From a virus (lineage: Duplodnaviria; Heunggongvirae; Uroviricota; Caudoviricetes): a DNA stretch of 7,837 nucleotides. The position numbers and the translations under genes are program-made. The notes under the pieces are model-generated. The model ran no database searches and was not told the DNA's origin. It was given only the letters and a program-made list of their open reading frames with translations. Positions 1 through 7,837 of the stretch are shown piece by piece. Each line of letters begins with the position of its first letter. Positions within the stretch are counted from its first letter, which is position 1. The stretch lies in IMG/VR virus record IMGVR_UViG_2711768019_000001. One strand, written 5' to 3'.

Positions 1-98
1 AGGGACAGCTGATAGAAACAGAAGCCACTGGAGCACCTCAAAAACACCATCATACACTAAATCAGTAAGTTGGCAGCATCACCTCATTCGTCTGTTCC

Positions 99-605
99 TT
101 AAATCTTCCAGGAAATTTCTGCATTGCCGTCAGCATCACCGGCACCTGTGAATTCAGCGTTGGTCAGCACCACGTTTTTGCCACTGACTGACGTGGACAT
201 GAATCCACCCAGCGGCACTTTGATGGATTCATCAGTGGAGACGACAACGTATACCGGATCGCCTTTTTTGATAGTGCTGGCATCAAAATCAGAACCGAGA
301 TTAACGGTCACGTAGCCACGCTTCATGGCGTCGCCCGGGAAGTTCTTGCCTGTTCCCACCTGGCGAACCATGTCCGGCTGCGACGTGGTCGGATAAGGGC
401 GCACGTAGATCCCCTTCACCTTGTCTGCGGTATCACCATCTGCCAGCGGCACGAAAAAACCGTCATCATCGTATTTACCAGCCAGGCCATAGGCAGCGAA
501 GGCGTTATCGGATTTAAGGACCACCGGTTCGACGGTTAAGTCCTGCGGGCGAGAGACAGCCCCGGCAATGCCAACAGGCATCCGGTACAGAAATACATTA
601 TTCAT
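99..605 (-). CDS. phage head-associated structural protein, 168 aa (possible decoration/cement-type protein; function not assignable from sequence alone)
   Basis: Intact minus-strand ORF. ATG at 603-605 with AAGGGT 6-7 nt upstream; stop TAA at 99-101. Its start lies 3 nt after the TAA of the upstream 406-aa ORF, i.e. tight operon packing. It occupies the slot after portal/MuF/scaffold where decoration or capsid-accessory genes sit in SPP1-type head modules. Confidence 0.6.
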   Translation of the reverse strand: MNNVFLYRMPVGIAGAVSRPQDLTVEPVVLKSDNAFAAYGLAGKYDDDGFFVPLADGDTADKVKGIYVRPYPTTSQPDMVRQVGTGKNFPGDAMKRGYVTVNLGSDFDASTIKKGDPVYVVVSTDESIKVPLGGFMSTSVSGKNVVLTNAEFTGAGDADGNAEISWKI

Positions 606-608
606 TTT

Positions 609-1829
609 TTACCCTTTACGGTTTGCCCAGAATTCAGCGTTTTGTTTGTTCAGGGAAGCGATACTGGTCATGCCCATGTTTAGGCGCTGTGCATCGCCGG
701 TGGTGGCGCGGGTGTTTCGCCCTTTGGCAACCTCAGACACGGCATTAAACGCCATGTCGACCGATTGTTTCGGTAATTTGCGGATATCCGCATCACCGAC
801 TATCTGGCGAACCAGCGTTTTGTCAGCAGAAGCCAGAACCTCGCGTTTGAACGCGGTCGGTTTCATCTTACGGCTCAGATCGATACCCGGAACGATAACT
901 TCGGCACGCCAGGCTGAGTCACCAGTAATCGTGGTTTCCTCTTCATCGTCCTCGCCGTCACCGGTCGGATTATCGTCAGGCTTATTATCGTTATCGCCCG
1001 TGGCATTTCTTTCCAGCTTAGCCAGCAGGGCTTTCAGTAATGTTTTGAGGTCATCATCACTGTCGCCGGTTGGATCTCCGCCCATCTCTGGTGCTTTGTC
1101 CGGTAGTGGTTGCTGCGGGGACAGGTTGATGTTGAGATTAACGCCCTGCGGCAAATCCCCCTCATCTCCTGTAACCGATGCGGGAGCCGACTCCACCAGT
1201 TCGTTCATGGTGTCGGCATCTCCTGTCTTGATGGCCGCACGCATGCGGTTCCACCAGTTTTTCTTTTGATTTGCCATTGTGTCTCTGTCTCCAATTGCAC
1301 AACGATTTCCGGCTCTGCCTTTAGGGACAAGAGCCACATGGTTTCCGGTAATATCGACCTGCTCGGCTTTACCTGGCTCGGTCTGCTCGTACTCCGCGTC
1401 ATAGCCGCACGACACTTCGCGCAGGCCATCTTCGATAAGCTGAATGGCGCTTTCGTCTTTGACGATAAGGTCAGCCAGCATCAAATCAGACTGCTCACCC
1501 GTCCCGCGCCGGACATTCTGGAGGTGCCCGACAGCAAGCTCTTTCCAGTTCTCGGGATTTACCAGCCGCACATTCCCGTTTTCATCTTCAGGATGCAGGA
1601 TCGTGATGCTCATCCCTTCGAATGAGGCAAGCGTGGCCGGATGGAATACCTGCTCAGGAGAACGCGTGACGACTATTTCACCGAACTTATCGGGTTTCAG
1701 TTTTGGCAGGTCATCAGCACCATAGAGCTGCTTACCTGTTCGTCCTATCGGCACGTCTTTGCACAGCAACGAGCCGTCAGCCAGGCGGTATCGGGTTTCC
1801 CCGAGCCTGGTCTCAAAAAAGTATTTCAT
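609..1829 (-). CDS. putative scaffolding / prohead-core protein, 406 aa, with a central Asp/Gly/Glu-rich low-complexity linker
   Basis: Intact minus-strand ORF. ATG at 1827-1829 lies 3 nt after the TAA stop (1833-1835) of the MuF-like gene; stop TAA at 609-611. Globular-looking N-terminal ~190 aa, acidic low-complexity region at about residues 201-306 (nt ~912-1229), then a basic/helical C-terminal region. Function is inferred from position and composition only. Confidence 0.6.
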   Translation of the reverse strand: MKYFFETRLGETRYRLADGSLLCKDVPIGRTGKQLYGADDLPKLKPDKFGEIVVTRSPEQVFHPATLASFEGMSITILHPEDENGNVRLVNPENWKELAVGHLQNVRRGTGEQSDLMLADLIVKDESAIQLIEDGLREVSCGYDAEYEQTEPGKAEQVDITGNHVALVPKGRAGNRCAIGDRDTMANQKKNWWNRMRAAIKTGDADTMNELVESAPASVTGDEGDLPQGVNLNINLSPQQPLPDKAPEMGGDPTGDSDDDLKTLLKALLAKLERNATGDNDNKPDDNPTGDGEDDEEETTITGDSAWRAEVIVPGIDLSRKMKPTAFKREVLASADKTLVRQIVGDADIRKLPKQSVDMAFNAVSEVAKGRNTRATTGDAQRLNMGMTSIASLNKQNAEFWANRKG

Positions 1830-1832
1830 GGG

Positions 1833-2615
1833 TTATGCTGCCCTTTTCATTGCGAATGGAACGCGAACAAACACGATCTCTTTATAGCAGCGGCAGTTTG
1901 GCAGCTCGCCCGCGTGGCCGGTCATGCCGTCCAAAGTTGGAGGTGAATCCCAGCGGACGAATTTACCTTTCATGTGATCGTGGGAATCTCGGACATCGCC
2001 ATCATCGGCTGTACGCCAAATATAACCATCCGAGCCAATAGCTATCGCTCGGGCCATATCCAGCGCGCCCGTTGCTCTTCCCAGTTCCGTTCGGGCAATC
2101 AGATCGGCCCTAGACTTAGCAACATCGCCGGTAGATGCAATCTCTTTAGCAAACTGCTCCGCCCGACCACCGGTGACAACAGCCTCTATCGCTTTGTTCT
2201 GGATGTCGTACACCCTGTCTGCGGCCTCGAGAGGCAGAGATTTGATGTACTTGACCTGTTCGGCGATGATGGATTGCATCACCTGGCCCACAGGAGCGCT
2301 TTCCACAAGATTGCGGAGCTCGCGACTGATGTTCTTGCTGTGTTGCCGCCAAACTTTCTCGTTCTGCCGGGTTAGGTCCGCAGTAAAGTTTTCCGCGACC
2401 TTTGTCGCCCAGGGGGTGATGATTTCACTGTAACGCTCCAGCGCCGCAATAATTTCCGTGATACTGTCATTTGAACCATCGTAGCGACCATTTACGATGT
2501 CTCCGACCGCCCTCGCTATCCTGCGTAGGCTGGTTCGATACCGGATTTCCGCCTGACGGCTCCTGCGGTTCGTCATCAGGTTCGCCGATGCCGGGCGGCG
2601 CTTCATCTTCGGCAT
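1833..2615 (-). CDS. phage head morphogenesis protein, Mu F / SPP1 gp7 family (minor head protein)
   Basis: 260-aa intact ORF directly downstream of the portal gene, which is the conserved gp6-gp7 arrangement. C-terminal region carries a Cys-x-Cys motif (ELPNCRCYKE) as recalled for this family. ATG at 2613-2615 has GAGGA 8 nt upstream. The start is uncertain because this ATG makes a 149-nt overlap with the portal 3' end; later in-frame ATGs exist at 2604-2606 and 2574-2576. Confidence 0.8.
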   Translation of the reverse strand: MPKMKRRPASANLMTNRRSRQAEIRYRTSLRRIARAVGDIVNGRYDGSNDSITEIIAALERYSEIITPWATKVAENFTADLTRQNEKVWRQHSKNISRELRNLVESAPVGQVMQSIIAEQVKYIKSLPLEAADRVYDIQNKAIEAVVTGGRAEQFAKEIASTGDVAKSRADLIARTELGRATGALDMARAIAIGSDGYIWRTADDGDVRDSHDHMKGKFVRWDSPPTLDGMTGHAGELPNCRCYKEIVFVRVPFAMKRAA

Positions 2616-3933
2616 TCTCGATGTCCTCGTCGGTAATGGATGCCCCGATGCCGGTTACGTCAGAATTTTCTCGCAAATCAGTCATAGCGGCTTTCAGTGT
2701 CATCAGACCATCACCCAGCGCCGTACTGATTGCGTTGGTGGTGTTTAACGCCACCGTTGAGCGATCGACATCAGACATTTGCCAGAGCGGGTTAAACTCA
2801 AACGTGAAATCGTCCGGCAGCGGCTTGCCAAGTTCCGAACGATGCATGATGTCCAGTATCCGCCGCACCGGAAGACGTAAACGCCTCTCCTGCAACGAAC
2901 TGATGCGATCGTAATAGTTGGCAAGGTCTGCATCACCGGTAGAAAATCCTTTCGGGGACTGTCCGAACAACCGCACCAGTGGGATACCAACAGCGCCACT
3001 AATCTGTTCTACAAACTGCGAAAGGATGTCATCCAGACCACTGAAGCTGTACTGATGGGTTTCAAACTTATCCCGCGAGTCCATGAGCGTCATGCCTTCA
3101 TTACTCTGGAACTGTCGAATCAGGTCGATATTCTTCAGCAACGCTTCATACGCAGGACCACCAAGTGCGATAAGCTCGCGTAGCTTCTCCACGCTGTAGG
3201 TACGCAAATGCGCCTTGTAGACCAGCTGCGCCGCGCCGACAGTAGCGCTGTCGAACGCGGTAAGACGATCCCAGATACGCTCTACAACCGACATTCCCCA
3301 TTCGTTCTCGGTCATCTTCTGCTGAAATGGCAACGTGACGCCATCAAAGCGAATCAGGCGACTGTGATGAATGCGCCAGGCAGGAATTCCCGTTGCTGTG
3401 GTCACCACATCGTAAAACTCAGGTTTACCCAGGTCCGGCCCCATATCTTTAATGCGGCGGGTCAGTGCCGGGTCGACCATCCAGCGGTCGAGCGGGAGAA
3501 TCCCCTTAAACTTGCCCTTACCGATGGTTTCGGGTCGCAGCGGGGTCATTGGTGCCTACCCCTCAATCATGATGAAACCCACCGCGCCGCCGTAGAGGCG
3601 CGACCATTTCAGCACGTCATTCAGCGCATCCCAGATTTGCAACTCATCCAGTTGTGATTCGAGAATGCCACGATCTTTTGCATCAATTTCCGAAGTGATG
3701 CGAATGCCTTTGCGGGTCATATCATCCGGGATAGCATCGACTGCTTCGCCGATGATCTAGGATGAACGATAGGACCATTCCACCAGCATGCGGTTACGAC
3801 TGGTGAAATTAGCCCGGTAGGTGGATGCTGAGTGCTGGTTAGGTGTCTGCATCCCTACGCGGGCAATAAAATTCTCATAACCATCAGCTGTGGCCTGCAC
3901 AGTTCGCCGCAGGGCTTGTTTGTTTCGTGCCAT
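2467..3933 (-). pseudogene. phage portal protein gene (SPP1 gp6-like), single 489-codon frame interrupted by two in-frame TAG codons at 3757-3759 and 3556-3558; longest uninterrupted segment is 2467-3549
   Basis: Minus-strand ATG at 3931-3933 overlaps the terL stop TGA (3933-3935) by one base, a typical coupled start. Translation gives MARNKQALRRTVQATADGYENFIARVGMQTPNQHSASTYRANFTSRNRMLVEWSYRSS, then TAG, then 66 sense codons (IIGEAVDAIPDDMTRKGIRITSEIDAKDRGILESQLDELQIWDALNDVLKWSRLYGGAVGFIMIEG), then TAG, then AP followed by the 360-aa ORF MTPLRPETIGKG...WFK ending at TGA 2467-2469. All three pieces are in the same frame with no indels. Acidic C-terminal tail and position between terL and the MuF-like gene support a portal. 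Typed pseudogene because the sequence as given cannot make full-length protein without stop suppression. Confidence 0.8.
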
Positions 3934-5363
3934 CAGGCCTGTCTCCCCAGCTGTTCCCAGATATCCAGCGATGTATCGATTGGCGCGAAGGCCATAATGA
4001 ATGCATCAGCAACGTTTGGTGACGGTATCTCGCGTTTTGCGAGGTCTTTTTTACTTTCGACCATCACACGTCCGTTACGGTCGAAATCACGATGAGGTGT
4101 TGTCAGTTCCAGTTTCAGCTTTTCAAGCAACGGACAACGAGAATCTATGCTGATCAGCTCATCCACAGGATACTGTTCTCCGTTGTTAATGGCGTTAAAC
4201 GTATTTCTGAAACGGTCAGCCACCAGCCACCATGCCTGAGCCTTAAGATTTGCGAAAAAGTCTTTGTTGGGGATGCCGTTGTACTCGTCATCTGGCTCAT
4301 GCACACCAGCACCGGCGTTAAACCTCTGGTAATTCACACGTCGCGCGTATGCGTTCTCGCTCTTCCGGTCAGCGTTAATTTCAGAGAATTTAGCACCGGC
4401 AGACGCACCAACACCGATAGAGTCGTAAACAATATCTGCTTCACGCTCCAGCGCCGCCTGATAAGTACGCTGGCAGCTCTTCAGTAATTCATCTTCTTTG
4501 GCCTTCCATTCGTCGGCCCAGAAAACAACGGATCCGTGACGGTAAACGTTAGCGCACTTATCTGTACCACTGTCAGCCACGTCAAAGCCAATACGCTTTC
4601 TTCCACTGGGTTCGAAATTTAACGTTTTGTGCGCATCCACTGCGGCTTCTATCCAAGACAGTTTGATGATTGCCGCATCATCATCAGACTCCGGAACGCC
4701 CTCATACACATGTTTAAAACCATCCGGATCACGGCGTCGCGCCGCGTCGATAACCTTAAGCATGGTGTCAGACAGAAACGGATTTTCGTCATAGTTAATT
4801 TTGCGGATGAGAGTGCCTTCGGGCGGATCAACAACGAAGTTGCGCCAGACGAAATCAGTAACAAGTCCGGGGTTGAATATGAACCAGCATTCCGAACCCT
4901 CTTTACGGATCGTTGGCTCCAGAATTTTCCACTGGTATTCCGTCAGTGCGTGGGCTTCTTCCAGCCACAACACATCGATCCCCTCCAGTGACTTAATTTC
5001 TTCGATGTTGCGCCATAATCCATAAAAAACAAATTCCGAGCCAGTAACCCGGTTAATGATTTTGTTGTTCAGAATACGGAAACGGTGCCGCAGACCAAAC
5101 CTGTCTATCTGAATTTTGAGCAGGGTATACACCGACTCTTCGATTTTATTCTGGATCTGACGGGCACAACAAAAACGCAGGGTGTATTTATTCGACAGAA
5201 ATATGGCAATGCCAGCGGCATCCCATGATTTTGACGATGACCGACCACCATAAAGCACTTTGTTACGTGCCCGCATAGTCCAGAAACTACGTAAAGCCGG
5301 ATTCAGCGTCGGTTTGGATGTCAGAGTAGAAGTCATTGAGGTCACGCTCTCCATTGCCATCAT
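3933..5363 (-). CDS. terL: terminase large subunit, PBSX/SPP1-type (N-terminal ATPase, C-terminal nuclease)
   Basis: Six-frame ORF 3933-5444. Walker A-like motif YGGRSSSKSW near the N-terminus and Walker B-like VLWLEEAH, with a long C-terminal domain typical of terminase nuclease. Stop TGA at 3933-3935. Start most likely an internal ATG (5361-5363, 5352-5354 or 5334-5336) rather than 5444, which would overlap terS by 158 nt; AGGT lies 5 nt upstream of the ATG at 5363, GGAGAG 11 nt upstream of the ATG at 5336. Exact start is uncertain. Confidence 0.9.
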   Translation of the reverse strand: MMAMESVTSMTSTLTSKPTLNPALRSFWTMRARNKVLYGGRSSSKSWDAAGIAIFLSNKYTLRFCCARQIQNKIEESVYTLLKIQIDRFGLRHRFRILNNKIINRVTGSEFVFYGLWRNIEEIKSLEGIDVLWLEEAHALTEYQWKILEPTIRKEGSECWFIFNPGLVTDFVWRNFVVDPPEGTLIRKINYDENPFLSDTMLKVIDAARRRDPDGFKHVYEGVPESDDDAAIIKLSWIEAAVDAHKTLNFEPSGRKRIGFDVADSGTDKCANVYRHGSVVFWADEWKAKEDELLKSCQRTYQAALEREADIVYDSIGVGASAGAKFSEINADRKSENAYARRVNYQRFNAGAGVHEPDDEYNGIPNKDFFANLKAQAWWLVADRFRNTFNAINNGEQYPVDELISIDSRCPLLEKLKLELTTPHRDFDRNGRVMVESKKDLAKREIPSPNVADAFIMAFAPIDTSLDIWEQLGRQA

Positions 5364-6051
5364 CAATACCTGCATCACGGCGAAGACGATCAGCCTCCAG
5401 AGACACCTTATCAGTGGCGGCCTTGCGGTAGGCTGTATCAGCAAATATTTTTCCTACCGTCGCAAGCGTGCCAACGATGGACTCAATACGAACTGTATTG
5501 CGCATCATTGCTTTCTCGGCGGCGCTGATATTTTCAATCAGCATCTTCCTTTCCTGGTCCCCATTAGCATCTTCCAGCGACACCAACCACCGACCAATAT
5601 TCTCTGCAGCGACAAGGTTGTTAGCACGAAGGCGAAATAATTCGTCCTCGAGCGTCAACGCTTTAGCGTCCTCTATCACCTCATCTTTGAGCAGAAGGCG
5701 ACGGGCATAACCACCGTGTTTTAATGCCTGCTGGTTACCGGGTTGGAATGGGTTAGTCGGGGGATCGGTACGCATTCCGCGTATCGGTTTCGTATCCGGT
5801 GTAGATTCTGTTTTTAGTTGCGTACTTTTTTGTGTAAGGCCAGTAATGGCAGGCTTTCTGCTGGTACGCACTTTCCTTTTTTGCGTACCATTTTTGCAAA
5901 CCTGCGTACCGCCACTGCGTGCCCAACCAAGCTTTTTGGCCCTCTTCCTGATAGCCCCTTCTGTAACGCCGTATTTCTCGCCTATATCACGGAGGCTAAG
6001 GACTCCGGCCCGGTATGCCGATTCGATGGCCTCCCAGTCCGGTTTTGCCAT
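5287..6051 (-). CDS. terS: terminase small subunit, 254 aa, with N-terminal helix-turn-helix DNA-binding region
   Basis: Intact ORF immediately upstream of terL. N-terminus MAKPDWEAIESAYRAGVLSLRDIGEKYGVTEGAIRKRAKKLGW is HTH-like, as in many small terminase subunits. ATG at 6049-6051 with AGGAAG 7 nt upstream; stop TAG at 5287-5289. Confidence 0.8.
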   Translation of the reverse strand: MAKPDWEAIESAYRAGVLSLRDIGEKYGVTEGAIRKRAKKLGWARSGGTQVCKNGTQKRKVRTSRKPAITGLTQKSTQLKTESTPDTKPIRGMRTDPPTNPFQPGNQQALKHGGYARRLLLKDEVIEDAKALTLEDELFRLRANNLVAAENIGRWLVSLEDANGDQERKMLIENISAAEKAMMRNTVRIESIVGTLATVGKIFADTAYRKAATDKVSLEADRLRRDAGIDDGNGERDLNDFYSDIQTDAESGFT

Positions 6052-6165
6052 GATTATGCTTCCTGTGATTTACTGTTATCGCTGCCTGTCACAATAGGTT
6101 GCTTTAATTCTTCCTCATCACTCACTCCTGCGACGCTCCGTGGCAGGGCCCCCCACAGGAGTACC

Positions 6166-6195
6166 TTGTAAATGTAAGGTGTTTAAGCCTAAATT
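6166..6195 (+). promoter_or_regulatory. candidate sigma70 promoter for the DedA/YqaA-like gene (TTGTAA, 18-bp spacer, TAAATT)
   Basis: Hexamers read directly in the divergent intergenic region 6052-6248, about 55 nt upstream of the ATG at 6249. Weak match to consensus; no experimental support. Confidence 0.2.
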
Positions 6196-6248
6196 AAGTC
6201 GTATCACGGTTAAATAGCAAAGAAAAATTCACAGAAGGAAAGACATTG

Positions 6249-6758
6249 ATGGAGTGGATAAATGCTTTGATGAACTATTTTGTACTTCATCCATATCGCC
6301 TATGGGGGCTTCTTTTTATAATAGCGTTCACAAAATCCACTTTACTCATTTCGGCGATATTGCCACCAGCATCAATTATGATGGCCACTGTAATTACAGT
6401 CAGCAAGACGACTCTTTCACCATGGGAAGCTGGAATCACGGTCATGAGTGGCGCATGGTGCGGTACTATCGTTAATTACCATCTTGGTATAATAATTGGG
6501 CATATCCCTCAACTTGCATGTATAATATCAAGCCGTTCCAATACAATAGAACGGGTTCGCCTTCAGTTGCAAAATAACTCTGTGTCAATACTTTTCACTT
6601 CGCGCTTTATCGCCGTGCTGCGTTATATTGCTCCTTTGGTGGCAGGAATGTTGCAACTTCATCCAGTGAAAGTGTATACAGTGAGTCTGATTTCAGCTGC
6701 TAGCTGGTCAGCACTTTATGTTGGTAGTTTTAGCTTCGTGTTGCCTTTTTTTAGCTAA
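6249..6758 (+). CDS. DedA/YqaA-like (VTT/SNARE-associated family) polytopic inner-membrane protein, 169 aa; moron-type accessory gene
   Basis: Only convincing plus-strand gene. ATG at 6249 (the six-frame ORF begins one codon earlier at TTG 6246) with AAGGAA about 8 nt upstream; stop TAA at 6756-6758. Translation is strongly hydrophobic with several predicted TM segments and recalled similarity to E. coli YqaA (ILPPASIMMATVI vs LLPGNSEVVLVAML; SGAWCGTIVNYHLG vs MGNSLGGLTNVILG). Visibly more AT-rich than the flanking structural genes (roughly 40% vs roughly 53% GC by eye) and transcribed against the phage late operon. Confidence 0.6.
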   Translation: MEWINALMNYFVLHPYRLWGLLFIIAFTKSTLLISAILPPASIMMATVITVSKTTLSPWEAGITVMSGAWCGTIVNYHLGIIIGHIPQLACIISSRSNTIERVRLQLQNNSVSILFTSRFIAVLRYIAPLVAGMLQLHPVKVYTVSLISAASWSALYVGSFSFVLPFFS

Positions 6759-6846
6759 ACTGCCCATAAAAAGCTCTTGCGAATCCAGCTTCCCCCATTC
6801 CTCTGACAACAGAATCTGATTTGAAGGATAATGAGTAAAATTACCG

Positions 6847-7095
6847 CTACCCCCCAAGGCATTGGATCCTGATGTACTCCTGAAGCATTCTCAATGCTGT
6901 CTGGTCGCTGATGATTCCGTCCCGGATACCGAGAACGTTTCGTCCAGCAACTGGAGAGAGTTCGACGGTGGCATCATTGCCCATGCCGGAGGCGCTGGAG
7001 GTTTCGGCTGAGGATGGCACAGGGCATTTTCCTTTGACGAGCACCCGACCACCATTATCAAGCTTGCGCCGAAGAGCATCATTTTCAGCTTTCGC
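6847..7095 (-). CDS. Rz: Rz-type i-spanin, C-terminal part only (5' end lies in the N gap)
   Basis: Translation from the gap edge reads AKAENDALRRKLDNGGRVLVKGKCPVPSSAETSSASGMGNDATVELSPVAGRNVLGIRDGIISDQTALRMLQEYIRIQCLGG. AKAENDALR matches the lambda Rz motif (ADAKAENDALRDD) and the C-terminus resembles P22 gp15 (YLQEYIRSQCLK), both recalled from memory. Stop TAG at 6847-6849 followed one codon later by TAA. Confidence 0.8.
   Translation of the reverse strand, partial: AKAENDALRRKLDNGGRVLVKGKCPVPSSAETSSASGMGNDATVELSPVAGRNVLGIRDGIISDQTALRMLQEYIRIQCLGG
6891..7082 (-). CDS. Rz1: Rz1-type o-spanin lipoprotein, embedded in the +1 frame of Rz; true start probably just inside the N gap
   Basis: Translation MMLFGASLIMVVGCSSKENALCHPQPKPPAPPAWAMMPP... 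has a lipobox (VVGC) and a proline-rich segment matching lambda Rz1 (LVVVGCTSKQ...CVKPPPPPAWIMQPP, from memory). Upstream in-frame codons before the gap read RKLKMML, like the lambda Rz1 N-terminus MLKLKMML. Stop TGA at 6891-6893. Confidence 0.8.
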   Translation of the reverse strand: MMLFGASLIMVVGCSSKENALCHPQPKPPAPPAWAMMPPSNSLQLLDETFSVSGTESSATRQH

Positions 7096-7630
7096 NNNNN
7101 NNNNNNNNNNNNNNNNNNNNNNNNNNNNNNNNNNNNNNNNNNNNNNNNNNNNNNNNNNNNNNNNNNNNNNNNNNNNNNNNNNNNNNNNNNNNNNNNNNNN
7201 NNNNNNNNNNNNNNNNNNNNNNNNNNNNNNNNNNNNNNNNNNNNNNNNNNNNNNNNNNNNNNNNNNNNNNNNNNNNNNNNNNNNNNNNNNNNNNNNNNNN
7301 NNNNNNNNNNNNNNNNNNNNNNNNNNNNNNNNNNNNNNNNNNNNNNNNNNNNNNNNNNNNNNNNNNNNNNNNNNNNNNNNNNNNNNNNNNNNNNNNNNNN
7401 NNNNNNNNNNNNNNNNNNNNNNNNNNNNNNNNNNNNNNNNNNNNNNNNNNNNNNNNNNNNNNNNNNNNNNNNNNNNNNNNNNNNNNNNNNNNNNNNNNNN
7501 NNNNNNNNNNNNNNNNNNNNNNNNNNNNNNNNNNNNNNNNNNNNNNNNNNNNNNNNNNNNNNNNNNNNNNNNNNNNNNNNNNNNNNNNNNNNNNNNNNNN
7601 NNNNNNNNNNNNNNNNNNNNNNNNNNNNNN
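7096..7630. other. assembly gap (535 N) within the lysis cassette
   Basis: Uninterrupted run of n. The six-frame ORFs drawn through it (poly-X) are artefacts. From typical gene sizes (inference) the gap should contain the endolysin body and the Rz and Rz1 starts. Confidence 0.99.
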
Positions 7631-7729
7631 ACCATCGTTACCACCTGGGCCAGTGATTAACACAGATGCTATAGCAACAGCCCCGCCACCAATAGCAACT
7701 GCAACAGCCTTGCGTAATGATGGCGACAT
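7631..7729 (-). CDS. SAR (signal-arrest-release) endolysin, phage 21 R21-like, N-terminal 33 codons only (remainder lies in the N gap)
   Basis: ATG at 7727-7729 with GAGAGGTG 6 nt upstream. Translation [33 protein letters not shown] is a basic N-terminus followed by a Gly/Ala-rich weakly hydrophobic segment, the hallmark of SAR domains, and closely resembles my recollection of the phage 21 R21 N-terminus ([33 protein letters not shown]). The downstream Rz/Rz1 pair fits a lysis cassette. Confidence 0.7.
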
Positions 7730-7783
7730 TATTCACCTCTCGCAGCCTTACTAGACTGGCCCCCTGAATCTCCAGACAACCAG

Positions 7784-7803
7784 TATCACTTAAATAAGTG
7801 ATA
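7784..7803. promoter_or_regulatory. inverted repeat TATCACTTA-AA-TAAGTGATA (9-bp arms, 2-bp spacer) in the leader upstream of the endolysin gene; candidate operator for a dimeric DNA-binding protein
   Basis: Read directly from the sequence. It sits in an 84-nt stretch (7754-7837) with stop codons in all three minus-strand frames. On the minus strand it overlaps a weak sigma70-like promoter candidate: TTAAGA (7810-7805), 17-nt spacer, GATACT (7787-7782). TATCAC/GTGATA half-sites recall lambdoid repressor operators, but the half-site spacing differs from lambda cI sites. Confidence 0.3.
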
Positions 7804-7837
7804 GTCTTAATACTAGTTTTTAGACTAGTCATTGGAG

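Follow-up and report, generated by a model that had tools for sequence, protein, structure and literature searches.

Genome decay in Shigella proceeds through expansion of the insertion sequences (ISs) IS1, IS2, IS600 and IS911, through deletions and through nonsense mutations (Hawkey et al. 2020, PMC7373316). Here we analyse a 7,837-nucleotide (nt) stretch of tailed-phage DNA (IMG/VR record IMGVR_UViG_2711768019_000001; Caudoviricetes), hereafter called the window, in which a phage portal gene is interrupted by two in-frame amber (TAG) codons. Since the work of Coulondre, Miller et al. in 1978, the 5-methylcytosine made by Dcm has reportedly been regarded as the classical hotspot for amber mutations, and laboratory amber (sus) alleles are conditional-lethal. 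Related portal proteins have been solved from the phages Pam3 (8hds) and E217 (gp19, 8fvh). Against this background, we conclude with a probability of about 90% that the window holds an ordinary portal pseudogene with two ambers, lying in an IS-truncated prophage remnant and fixed in every Shigella sonnei-type assembly that we read.

Translation of the minus-strand frame from 3933 to 2467 gives 488 codons and a TGA, a single portal gene whose ATG overlaps the TGA of the terminase large subunit gene (terL) by one base (TGATG). Internal stops occur only at codon 59 (3757–3759; CTA on the plus strand) and codon 126 (3556–3558), both of them TAG, and the gene therefore has no uninterrupted frame for a full-length portal subunit. 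Window positions 84–7095 align to intact relatives with 7–10 mismatches and 0 gaps, hence without indels in the portal gene. Translation and gap-free alignment thus agree with the first-pass annotation, which was made from the sequence alone and described a portal frame unbroken save for the two TAGs. After the second stop, gene callers list a separate protein of 360 amino acids (aa) that starts at Met129 (ATG at 3549–3547; start region 3385–3549, minus strand). This residual open reading frame (ORF) is deposited as UniProt Q3Z426_SHISS and as ‘putative bacteriophage protein [Shigella sonnei]’.

The ancestral state of the gene was read from intact relatives. Escherichia coli FDAARGOS_944, VL40, CP065611 and CP119443 contain the same prophage region with an intact 488-aa portal (WP_000113499.1), and differ from the window at 7–10 of 7,012 positions without gaps (99.86–99.90% nucleotide identity); four relatives (loci L002, L003, L043 and L048) have the complete prophage gene set across the window. 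Differences were polarized with ten relatives, comprising the four intact E. coli prophages, S. flexneri SFBU1023, E. coli ECMA0423, phage vB_EcoM-689R2 and more distant E. coli prophages. Where the sites are covered, these relatives have TGG at codon 59, CAG at codon 126 and GCA at codon 308. The first amber (3757–3759, minus strand) is a change of Trp59 from TGG to TAG, or C3758>T on the plus strand, where C is present in 10/10 non-sonnei relatives covering the site. The second (3556–3558, minus strand) converts Gln126 from CAG to TAG, or G3558>A on the plus strand, with G likewise in 10/10. A third S. sonnei-specific substitution at 3011 replaces GCA (Ala) with GTA (Val) at codon 308 of the same strand. 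All three are single GC>AT transitions. Alignment to intact portal homologues, which had been proposed as a check on the two positions, accordingly returned sense codons at both, TGG at codon 59 and CAG at codon 126.

We then asked whether the three segments belong together. The intact allele of E. coli FDAARGOS_944 matches PF06381 (Phage_portal_3, or DUF1073) with E=3e-106 and 355 bits, far above the gathering cut-off of 33.8 bits. The middle and C-terminal fragments of the window score 55 and 274 bits and occupy profile positions 13–76 and 84–355, consecutive and in register, so they are pieces of one gene; the alternative named beforehand, that three unrelated genes had been joined in a single frame, is contradicted by this profile. 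The family also shows homology to the solved portals of Pam3 (E=2e-37) and E217 gp19 (E=1e-14), and the Pam3 portal has Trp and Gln at the positions aligned to Trp59 and Gln126. Across 23 homologues, the most distant at 57% identity, Gln126 never varies and Trp59 shows at least 90% conservation. The gene directly follows terL and precedes a Mu F-like head morphogenesis gene, the position expected of a portal. Taken together, these results identify the window copy (2467–3933, minus strand) as a pseudogene of the portal family and not a working member. In RefSeq, some copies of this family bear the name ‘anti-CBASS protein Acb1 family protein’ and most the name ‘DUF1073 domain-containing protein’; the former naming looks inconsistent for a clear portal protein.

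Damage to the prophage extends well beyond the portal gene. Positions 1–83 are the terminal 83 nt of IS1, 100% identical to the flank of an annotated IS1A transposase in E. coli FDAARGOS_943 (locus L019), and in complete S. sonnei genomes the InsA and InsB genes lie beyond them. IS1 truncates the prophage: what remains at 84–98 (minus strand) is the first 4 nt of the major capsid gene (84–87) and an intergenic spacer, as judged by alignment to FDAARGOS_944, in which window position 84 corresponds to 4,309,985 and the capsid gene starts at 4,309,982. On the far side of IS1, S. sonnei has a DNA-invertase fragment followed by pgl. In FDAARGOS_944, whose prophage lies between ybhA and pgl, this invertase fragment is found 19,075 bp beyond the capsid start, so that about 19 kb is missing in S. 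sonnei, including the capsid, neck, sheath, tube, tape-measure, baseplate and fibre genes and the effector gene ipaHb. In the FDAARGOS_944 prophage, this type III effector gene is located beside the tail-fibre genes (L018, 41761–43587).

At the other end, positions 7752–7837 are the terminal 86 nt of IS2, 100% identical to the end beside an annotated IS2 transposase in L019; the IS2 transposase genes lie beyond the window end in complete S. sonnei genomes. IS2 severs a class II holin gene, of which the last 22 nt are retained at 7730–7751 (minus strand; aligned to L002 11413–11434, inside the holin coding sequence). In strain 53G, a 5-bp duplication, GTAAG, flanks the IS2, which inserted 22 nt before the holin gene end. 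Farther upstream in S. sonnei, additional IS elements replace the transfer RNA (tRNA) cluster and parts of the regulatory region. On its gene content the element cannot make particles, because the capsid gene is cut after 4 nt, about 19 kb is absent and the holin gene is split by IS2. The first-pass annotation had described all other genes of the window as intact. This is true of the complete ORFs, which have the same lengths as in intact relatives, but not of the capsid and holin genes, which are cut by the bordering IS1 and IS2 ends that the annotation overlooked. Its deduction that the locus shows no generalized decay does not survive the loss of the capsid gene from its fifth nucleotide, the missing 19 kb, the IS2 in the holin gene and the IS elements upstream. 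Other members of this phage type have decayed by independent routes: IS2 is inserted within terL in S. flexneri SFBU1023 (L014) at window 4669–4673, and in FDAARGOS_943, deposited as ‘E. coli’, at window ~4883–4888, where the head morphogenesis gene also has an internal stop.

The two ambers are fixed in all S. sonnei material that we read. Positions 1–7095 and 7631–7837 of the window are 100% identical to complete genomes including HE616528, which is S. sonnei 53G (lineage II), and CP019689, which is 75/02 (lineage IIIc) (PMC5447701). In the S. sonnei-type loci that we read, from about 30 independent assemblies that include complete genomes of different laboratories, A3011, A3558 and T3758 occur without exception; no such locus lacks the TAGs, and four IMG/VR contigs also carry both TAGs. 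The fragments are indexed in thousands of public-assembly blocks, 2,576 for the 360-aa ORF, 2,758 for a 54-aa ORF and 2,737 for a 58-aa ORF, mostly on contigs of 5–10 kb. One 7,919-nt public draft contig (L029) is identical to the window end to end, with the same IS1 and IS2 ends, and shows 617 actual bases in place of the window's 535 N. The window therefore resembles the usual kind of short-read contig that breaks off at repeats. Single-amber intermediates were not decisively found among the assemblies read or the short N-terminal protein clusters, which yielded only frameshifted or contig-end fragments.

Within the remnant, S. sonnei assemblies carry single-nucleotide polymorphisms at positions 6530, 6535, 5311, 362 and 583; position 6535 is G or A in several S. 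sonnei genomes, and position 6530 is G in CP180280. A synonymous change at 6530, in a DedA-family gene, was considered as a fourth sonnei-specific substitution and rejected, because L047, a sonnei-type locus, retains the ancestral G, and A is found in L043, an intact relative. Scattered 1-nt deletions in several nanopore-style S. sonnei assemblies are probably errors. In CP022672.1, a 1,153-bp IS630-family element with terminal inverted repeats and a TA duplication occupies L050 5579–6733, at window 3758–3759. The codon-59 amber created a CTAG and thereby a new IS target, and the element in this sonnei-type genome sits exactly there.

The sequence facts, ancestral codons, fixation across assemblies, IS truncations and deletion, all of which were read directly, are consistent with the following history. 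A lambdoid or myovirus-type prophage occupies a site between ybhA and pgl in the S. sonnei lineage. Trp59 (TGG) and Gln126 (CAG) became ambers through two spontaneous GC>AT transitions, and a third replaced Ala308 by Val. The codon-59 change affects the internal C of a CCAGG Dcm site (3757–3761 in the ancestor; CCAGG>CTAGG), and this amber probably came from deamination of 5-methylcytosine. The changes at 3558, 3011 and 6530 are not at Dcm sites. The region has 13 CCWGG sites, at which 8/26 methylatable C positions would give a nonsense codon on deamination. A strand-coordinated cluster of deaminations, as expected from single-strand damage, was also considered and was rejected because on the plus strand two of the changes are G>A and one is C>T. 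The prophage is dead for reasons independent of the portal stops, having lost about 19 kb of capsid, tail and ipaH genes to IS1 while its holin gene is split by IS2. The stops would therefore be neither suppressed nor needed, and they would represent neutral decay that was fixed before the sampled S. sonnei lineages diverged. This corresponds to the first of the explanations put forward in the first-pass annotation, namely two nonsense mutations in a defective prophage, which proves to be right, given the ancestral codons TGG and CAG and the reduction of the prophage to a remnant.

Three further explanations would leave the portal gene functional or its stops unreal. Both stops are TAG and derive from transitions typical of classical amber mutants, as they would if a functional portal were made by amber-suppressor read-through, in the manner of a sus mutant in a supE/supF-type host. 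However, no tRNA with a CUA anticodon was found in the window, which has no tRNA gene at all, or in eight loci of 13.6–21 kb, an absence that is local only; the S. sonnei loci scanned (up to 21 kb) lack one, and the tRNA genes of the intact relatives have the anticodons cat, tct, tgt and tcc/tac. A single suppressor would be unable to restore both Trp and Gln, both of which are conserved, and the terminase small subunit gene (terS) and an Rz-type lysis gene terminate at TAG. Suppression would also call for an otherwise complete, viable phage genome, whereas here the capsid gene is cut, about 19 kb is absent and the holin gene is split, so that with capsid, tail and holin functions missing or cut there is no particle to rescue. 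The carriers are, moreover, natural clinical isolates of several lineages (PMC5447701). An amber mutant maintained by a suppressor, one of the options raised earlier, is thus unsupported and highly improbable. Reassignment of TAG to a sense codon in this phage has nothing in its favour beyond the two in-frame TAGs, and its probability is next to nil: TAG ends terS and Rz here and in relatives, in-frame TAG is confined to the portal gene, the intact relatives have ordinary sense codons at both sites, and the loci scanned have no suppressor tRNA. The earlier judgement that a change of genetic code is unlikely, and its observation that terS and Rz stop at TAG (with Rz reading TAG CGG TAA), are both borne out by the sequence. 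Finally, the N run of the window and its ends within repeats might speak for a base-calling or assembly artefact of a draft assembly. An artefact should be absent from independent assemblies, but the same bases occur in about 30 of them, including finished chromosomes, and both TAGs recur in the four IMG/VR contigs. This refutes the suggestion of a sequencing or assembly error, the probability of which is vanishingly small.

A mild oddity is the distribution of the changes. Over 84–7095, only 3011, 3558 and 3758 are both unique to and fixed in S. sonnei, and all three are in the portal gene. When three random GC>AT transitions were modelled in this interval, the chance of two or more nonsense changes was P=0.0067, and of two or more in one gene P=0.0012; all three fell in the portal gene with P=0.011 and in any one gene with P=0.024, and a span of 748 nt or less had P=0.032. 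If a dead remnant decayed neutrally and uniformly, its changes should be scattered, so the concentration of all three across 7,012 nt in one gene, two of them nonsense (P=0.011 and P=0.0067), weighs against the neutral account. Selection might instead have favoured portal inactivation, either because it locks in a prophage that was useful for its ipaH gene or because the portal was costly, for example as the trigger of a portal-sensing defence, with the additional changes being hitch-hiking decay. In line with this idea, all three stem-branch substitutions are in the portal gene and two are nonsense, no substitution in the flanking 5.5 kb is at once confined to S. sonnei and fixed there, the intact prophage carries ipaHb, and the same phage type has been disabled elsewhere at the neighbouring packaging gene by IS2 at two sites in terL (SFBU1023 and FDAARGOS_943). 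Yet a single stop would have sufficed, and the second one and the missense change resemble drift; the ipaH gene that belongs to this prophage has itself been deleted in S. sonnei; and P values of 0.01–0.03, from three events at a locus selected in advance, are weak. A rough, uncomputed estimate, taking a stem-branch rate of ~4e-4 per site and several hundred dispensable genes, gives about one double-nonsense gene per genome by chance. Locally the clustering is unusual, beyond chance, yet it comprises only three events, one of them at a hotspot, in a locus chosen for its stops and in a genus known to accumulate nonsense mutations, IS insertions and deletions (PMC7373316). We treat chance and relaxed selection as sufficient to account for it, and regard selective inactivation of the portal as improbable. 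Much the same small likelihood attaches to the broader proposition that portal loss was non-random, whether through selection to silence the portal or because an element already defective in its portal spread horizontally among Shigella lineages, carried by a helper phage or through recombination.

A related question is when the codon-126 amber arose. In S. dysenteriae Sd197 and 1617, an annotated 360-aa protein (ABB62211.1) that matches window 2467–3549 starts at the same Met129. It is identical to the S. sonnei fragment at 355/360 positions; it does not have Ala308Val, and of its four private changes one affects an invariant Pro. Because of the shared Met129 start, the codon-126 amber is possibly common to two Shigella lineages. 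It would then be older than S. sonnei and shared with S. dysenteriae type 1 by transfer or gene conversion of a defective allele, or else would have arisen by parallel mutation. The protein annotation itself, with its Met129 start and without Ala308Val, points in this direction, and with an open codon 126 the ORF call would be expected to reach at least Met122 or Val118. The start may instead reflect the choice of the gene caller or another nearby lesion, and none of the loci read has a single-amber intermediate allele. A genome-contig scan returned no S. dysenteriae copies, only those of S. flexneri SFBU1023 and E. coli ECMA0423, both wild type; two viral-contig scans (in which only sonnei-identical contigs appeared) and a metagenome scan likewise contained none, and the 54-aa, 58-aa and terL products had no genomic context attributable to S. 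dysenteriae. We consider an older origin of the Gln126 amber possible, if unlikely. Sharing with S. dysenteriae affects when the amber arose, not what the feature is.

The remaining genes of the window form the head, packaging and lysis regions of the prophage. On the minus strand, an intact gene for a 168-aa head cement or decoration protein (99–605; PF22758, PF23982) is followed by an intact gene for a 406-aa DUF2213 or Pa193_gp24-like head protein (609–1829) and by the Mu F-like head morphogenesis gene (1833–2576; 247 aa; PF04233), which overlaps the 3′ end of the portal gene by 110 nt (2467–2576). Gene callers dispute the start of this head morphogenesis gene, giving either 247 aa or 152 aa. 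The intact terL gene (3933–5336, minus strand) encodes 467 aa and ends in the TGA that overlaps the portal start codon, as described above. It overlaps by 50 nt (5287–5336) with a putative terS gene (5287–6051, minus strand; 254 aa; TAG stop at 5287–5289), which is assigned by position alone and has no Pfam match.

Between terS and Rz, on the strand opposite to the phage genes, lies a gene for a DedA-family membrane protein (6246–6758, plus strand; PF09335), whose 5′ side borders about 190 nt of non-coding sequence. The whole DedA–Rz segment is present in only 6/5,426 complete E. coli genomes, which makes DedA a rare cargo gene of this phage group. The 3′ part of the Rz-type lysis gene (6847–7095, minus strand; PF03245), with its TAG stop at 6847–6849 followed by CGG TAA, runs into the 535-N run (7096–7630). 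In complete genomes this run is replaced by 617 nt, the 5′ part of Rz and most of a lysozyme gene; the N run is thus 82 nt shorter than the true length, and Rz and lysozyme are intact ORFs in complete S. sonnei genomes. The 5′ end of the phage lysozyme gene (PF00959) follows at 7631–7729 (minus strand), with its ATG at 7729.

For annotation, the consequence is that the ORFs of 58, 54 and 360 aa listed as separate S. sonnei ‘bacteriophage proteins’ are pieces of one dead portal gene. The fragments have stood in public annotations as separate ORFs since the Ss046 genome. As an instance of prophage decay the locus is clean and datable: in a young pathogen clone it combines point mutations, one of them at a Dcm hotspot, with an IS1 deletion and an IS2 insertion. 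The two TAGs together with the IS1 and IS2 borders could serve as a lineage marker. If the clustering or the sharing with S. dysenteriae is true, it bears on whether bacteria actively disable the packaging genes of useful prophages; beyond annotation, the locus otherwise has little importance.

Set beside known systems, the window has the gene order of the intact ybhA–pgl prophages of FDAARGOS_944, VL40, CP065611 and CP119443, the first of which occupies the same site next to pgl. Unlike the window, these intact E. coli prophages have TGG59, CAG126 and GCA308, an uninterrupted holin gene, and the capsid and downstream structural genes, and FDAARGOS_944 has, unlike the S. sonnei copy, a full tail module and ipaHb. 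By sequence the gene belongs to the same family as the solved portals of Pam3 (8hds), E217 (gp19, 8fvh) and related myoviruses (E=2e-37 to 1e-14), but in contrast to Pam3 and E217 gp19, the window copy is truncated. As in classical amber (sus) mutants and at the Dcm hotspot, TGG>TAG and CAG>TAG arose by GC>AT changes, at codon 59 at the internal C of CCAGG; unlike hotspot mutations, the codon-126 change is off a Dcm site, and unlike conditional-lethal laboratory sus alleles, the portal ambers are natural, fixed, unsuppressed and part of a dead element. The closest likeness is to the prophage-remnant pseudogenes of Shigella (PMC7373316), with which this locus shares the organism group, border IS elements, IS-mediated deletion and fixed nonsense mutations in a dispensable gene; nothing essential differs, and only the concentration of two nonsense changes and one missense change in one gene, with its neighbours unchanged, sets it apart.

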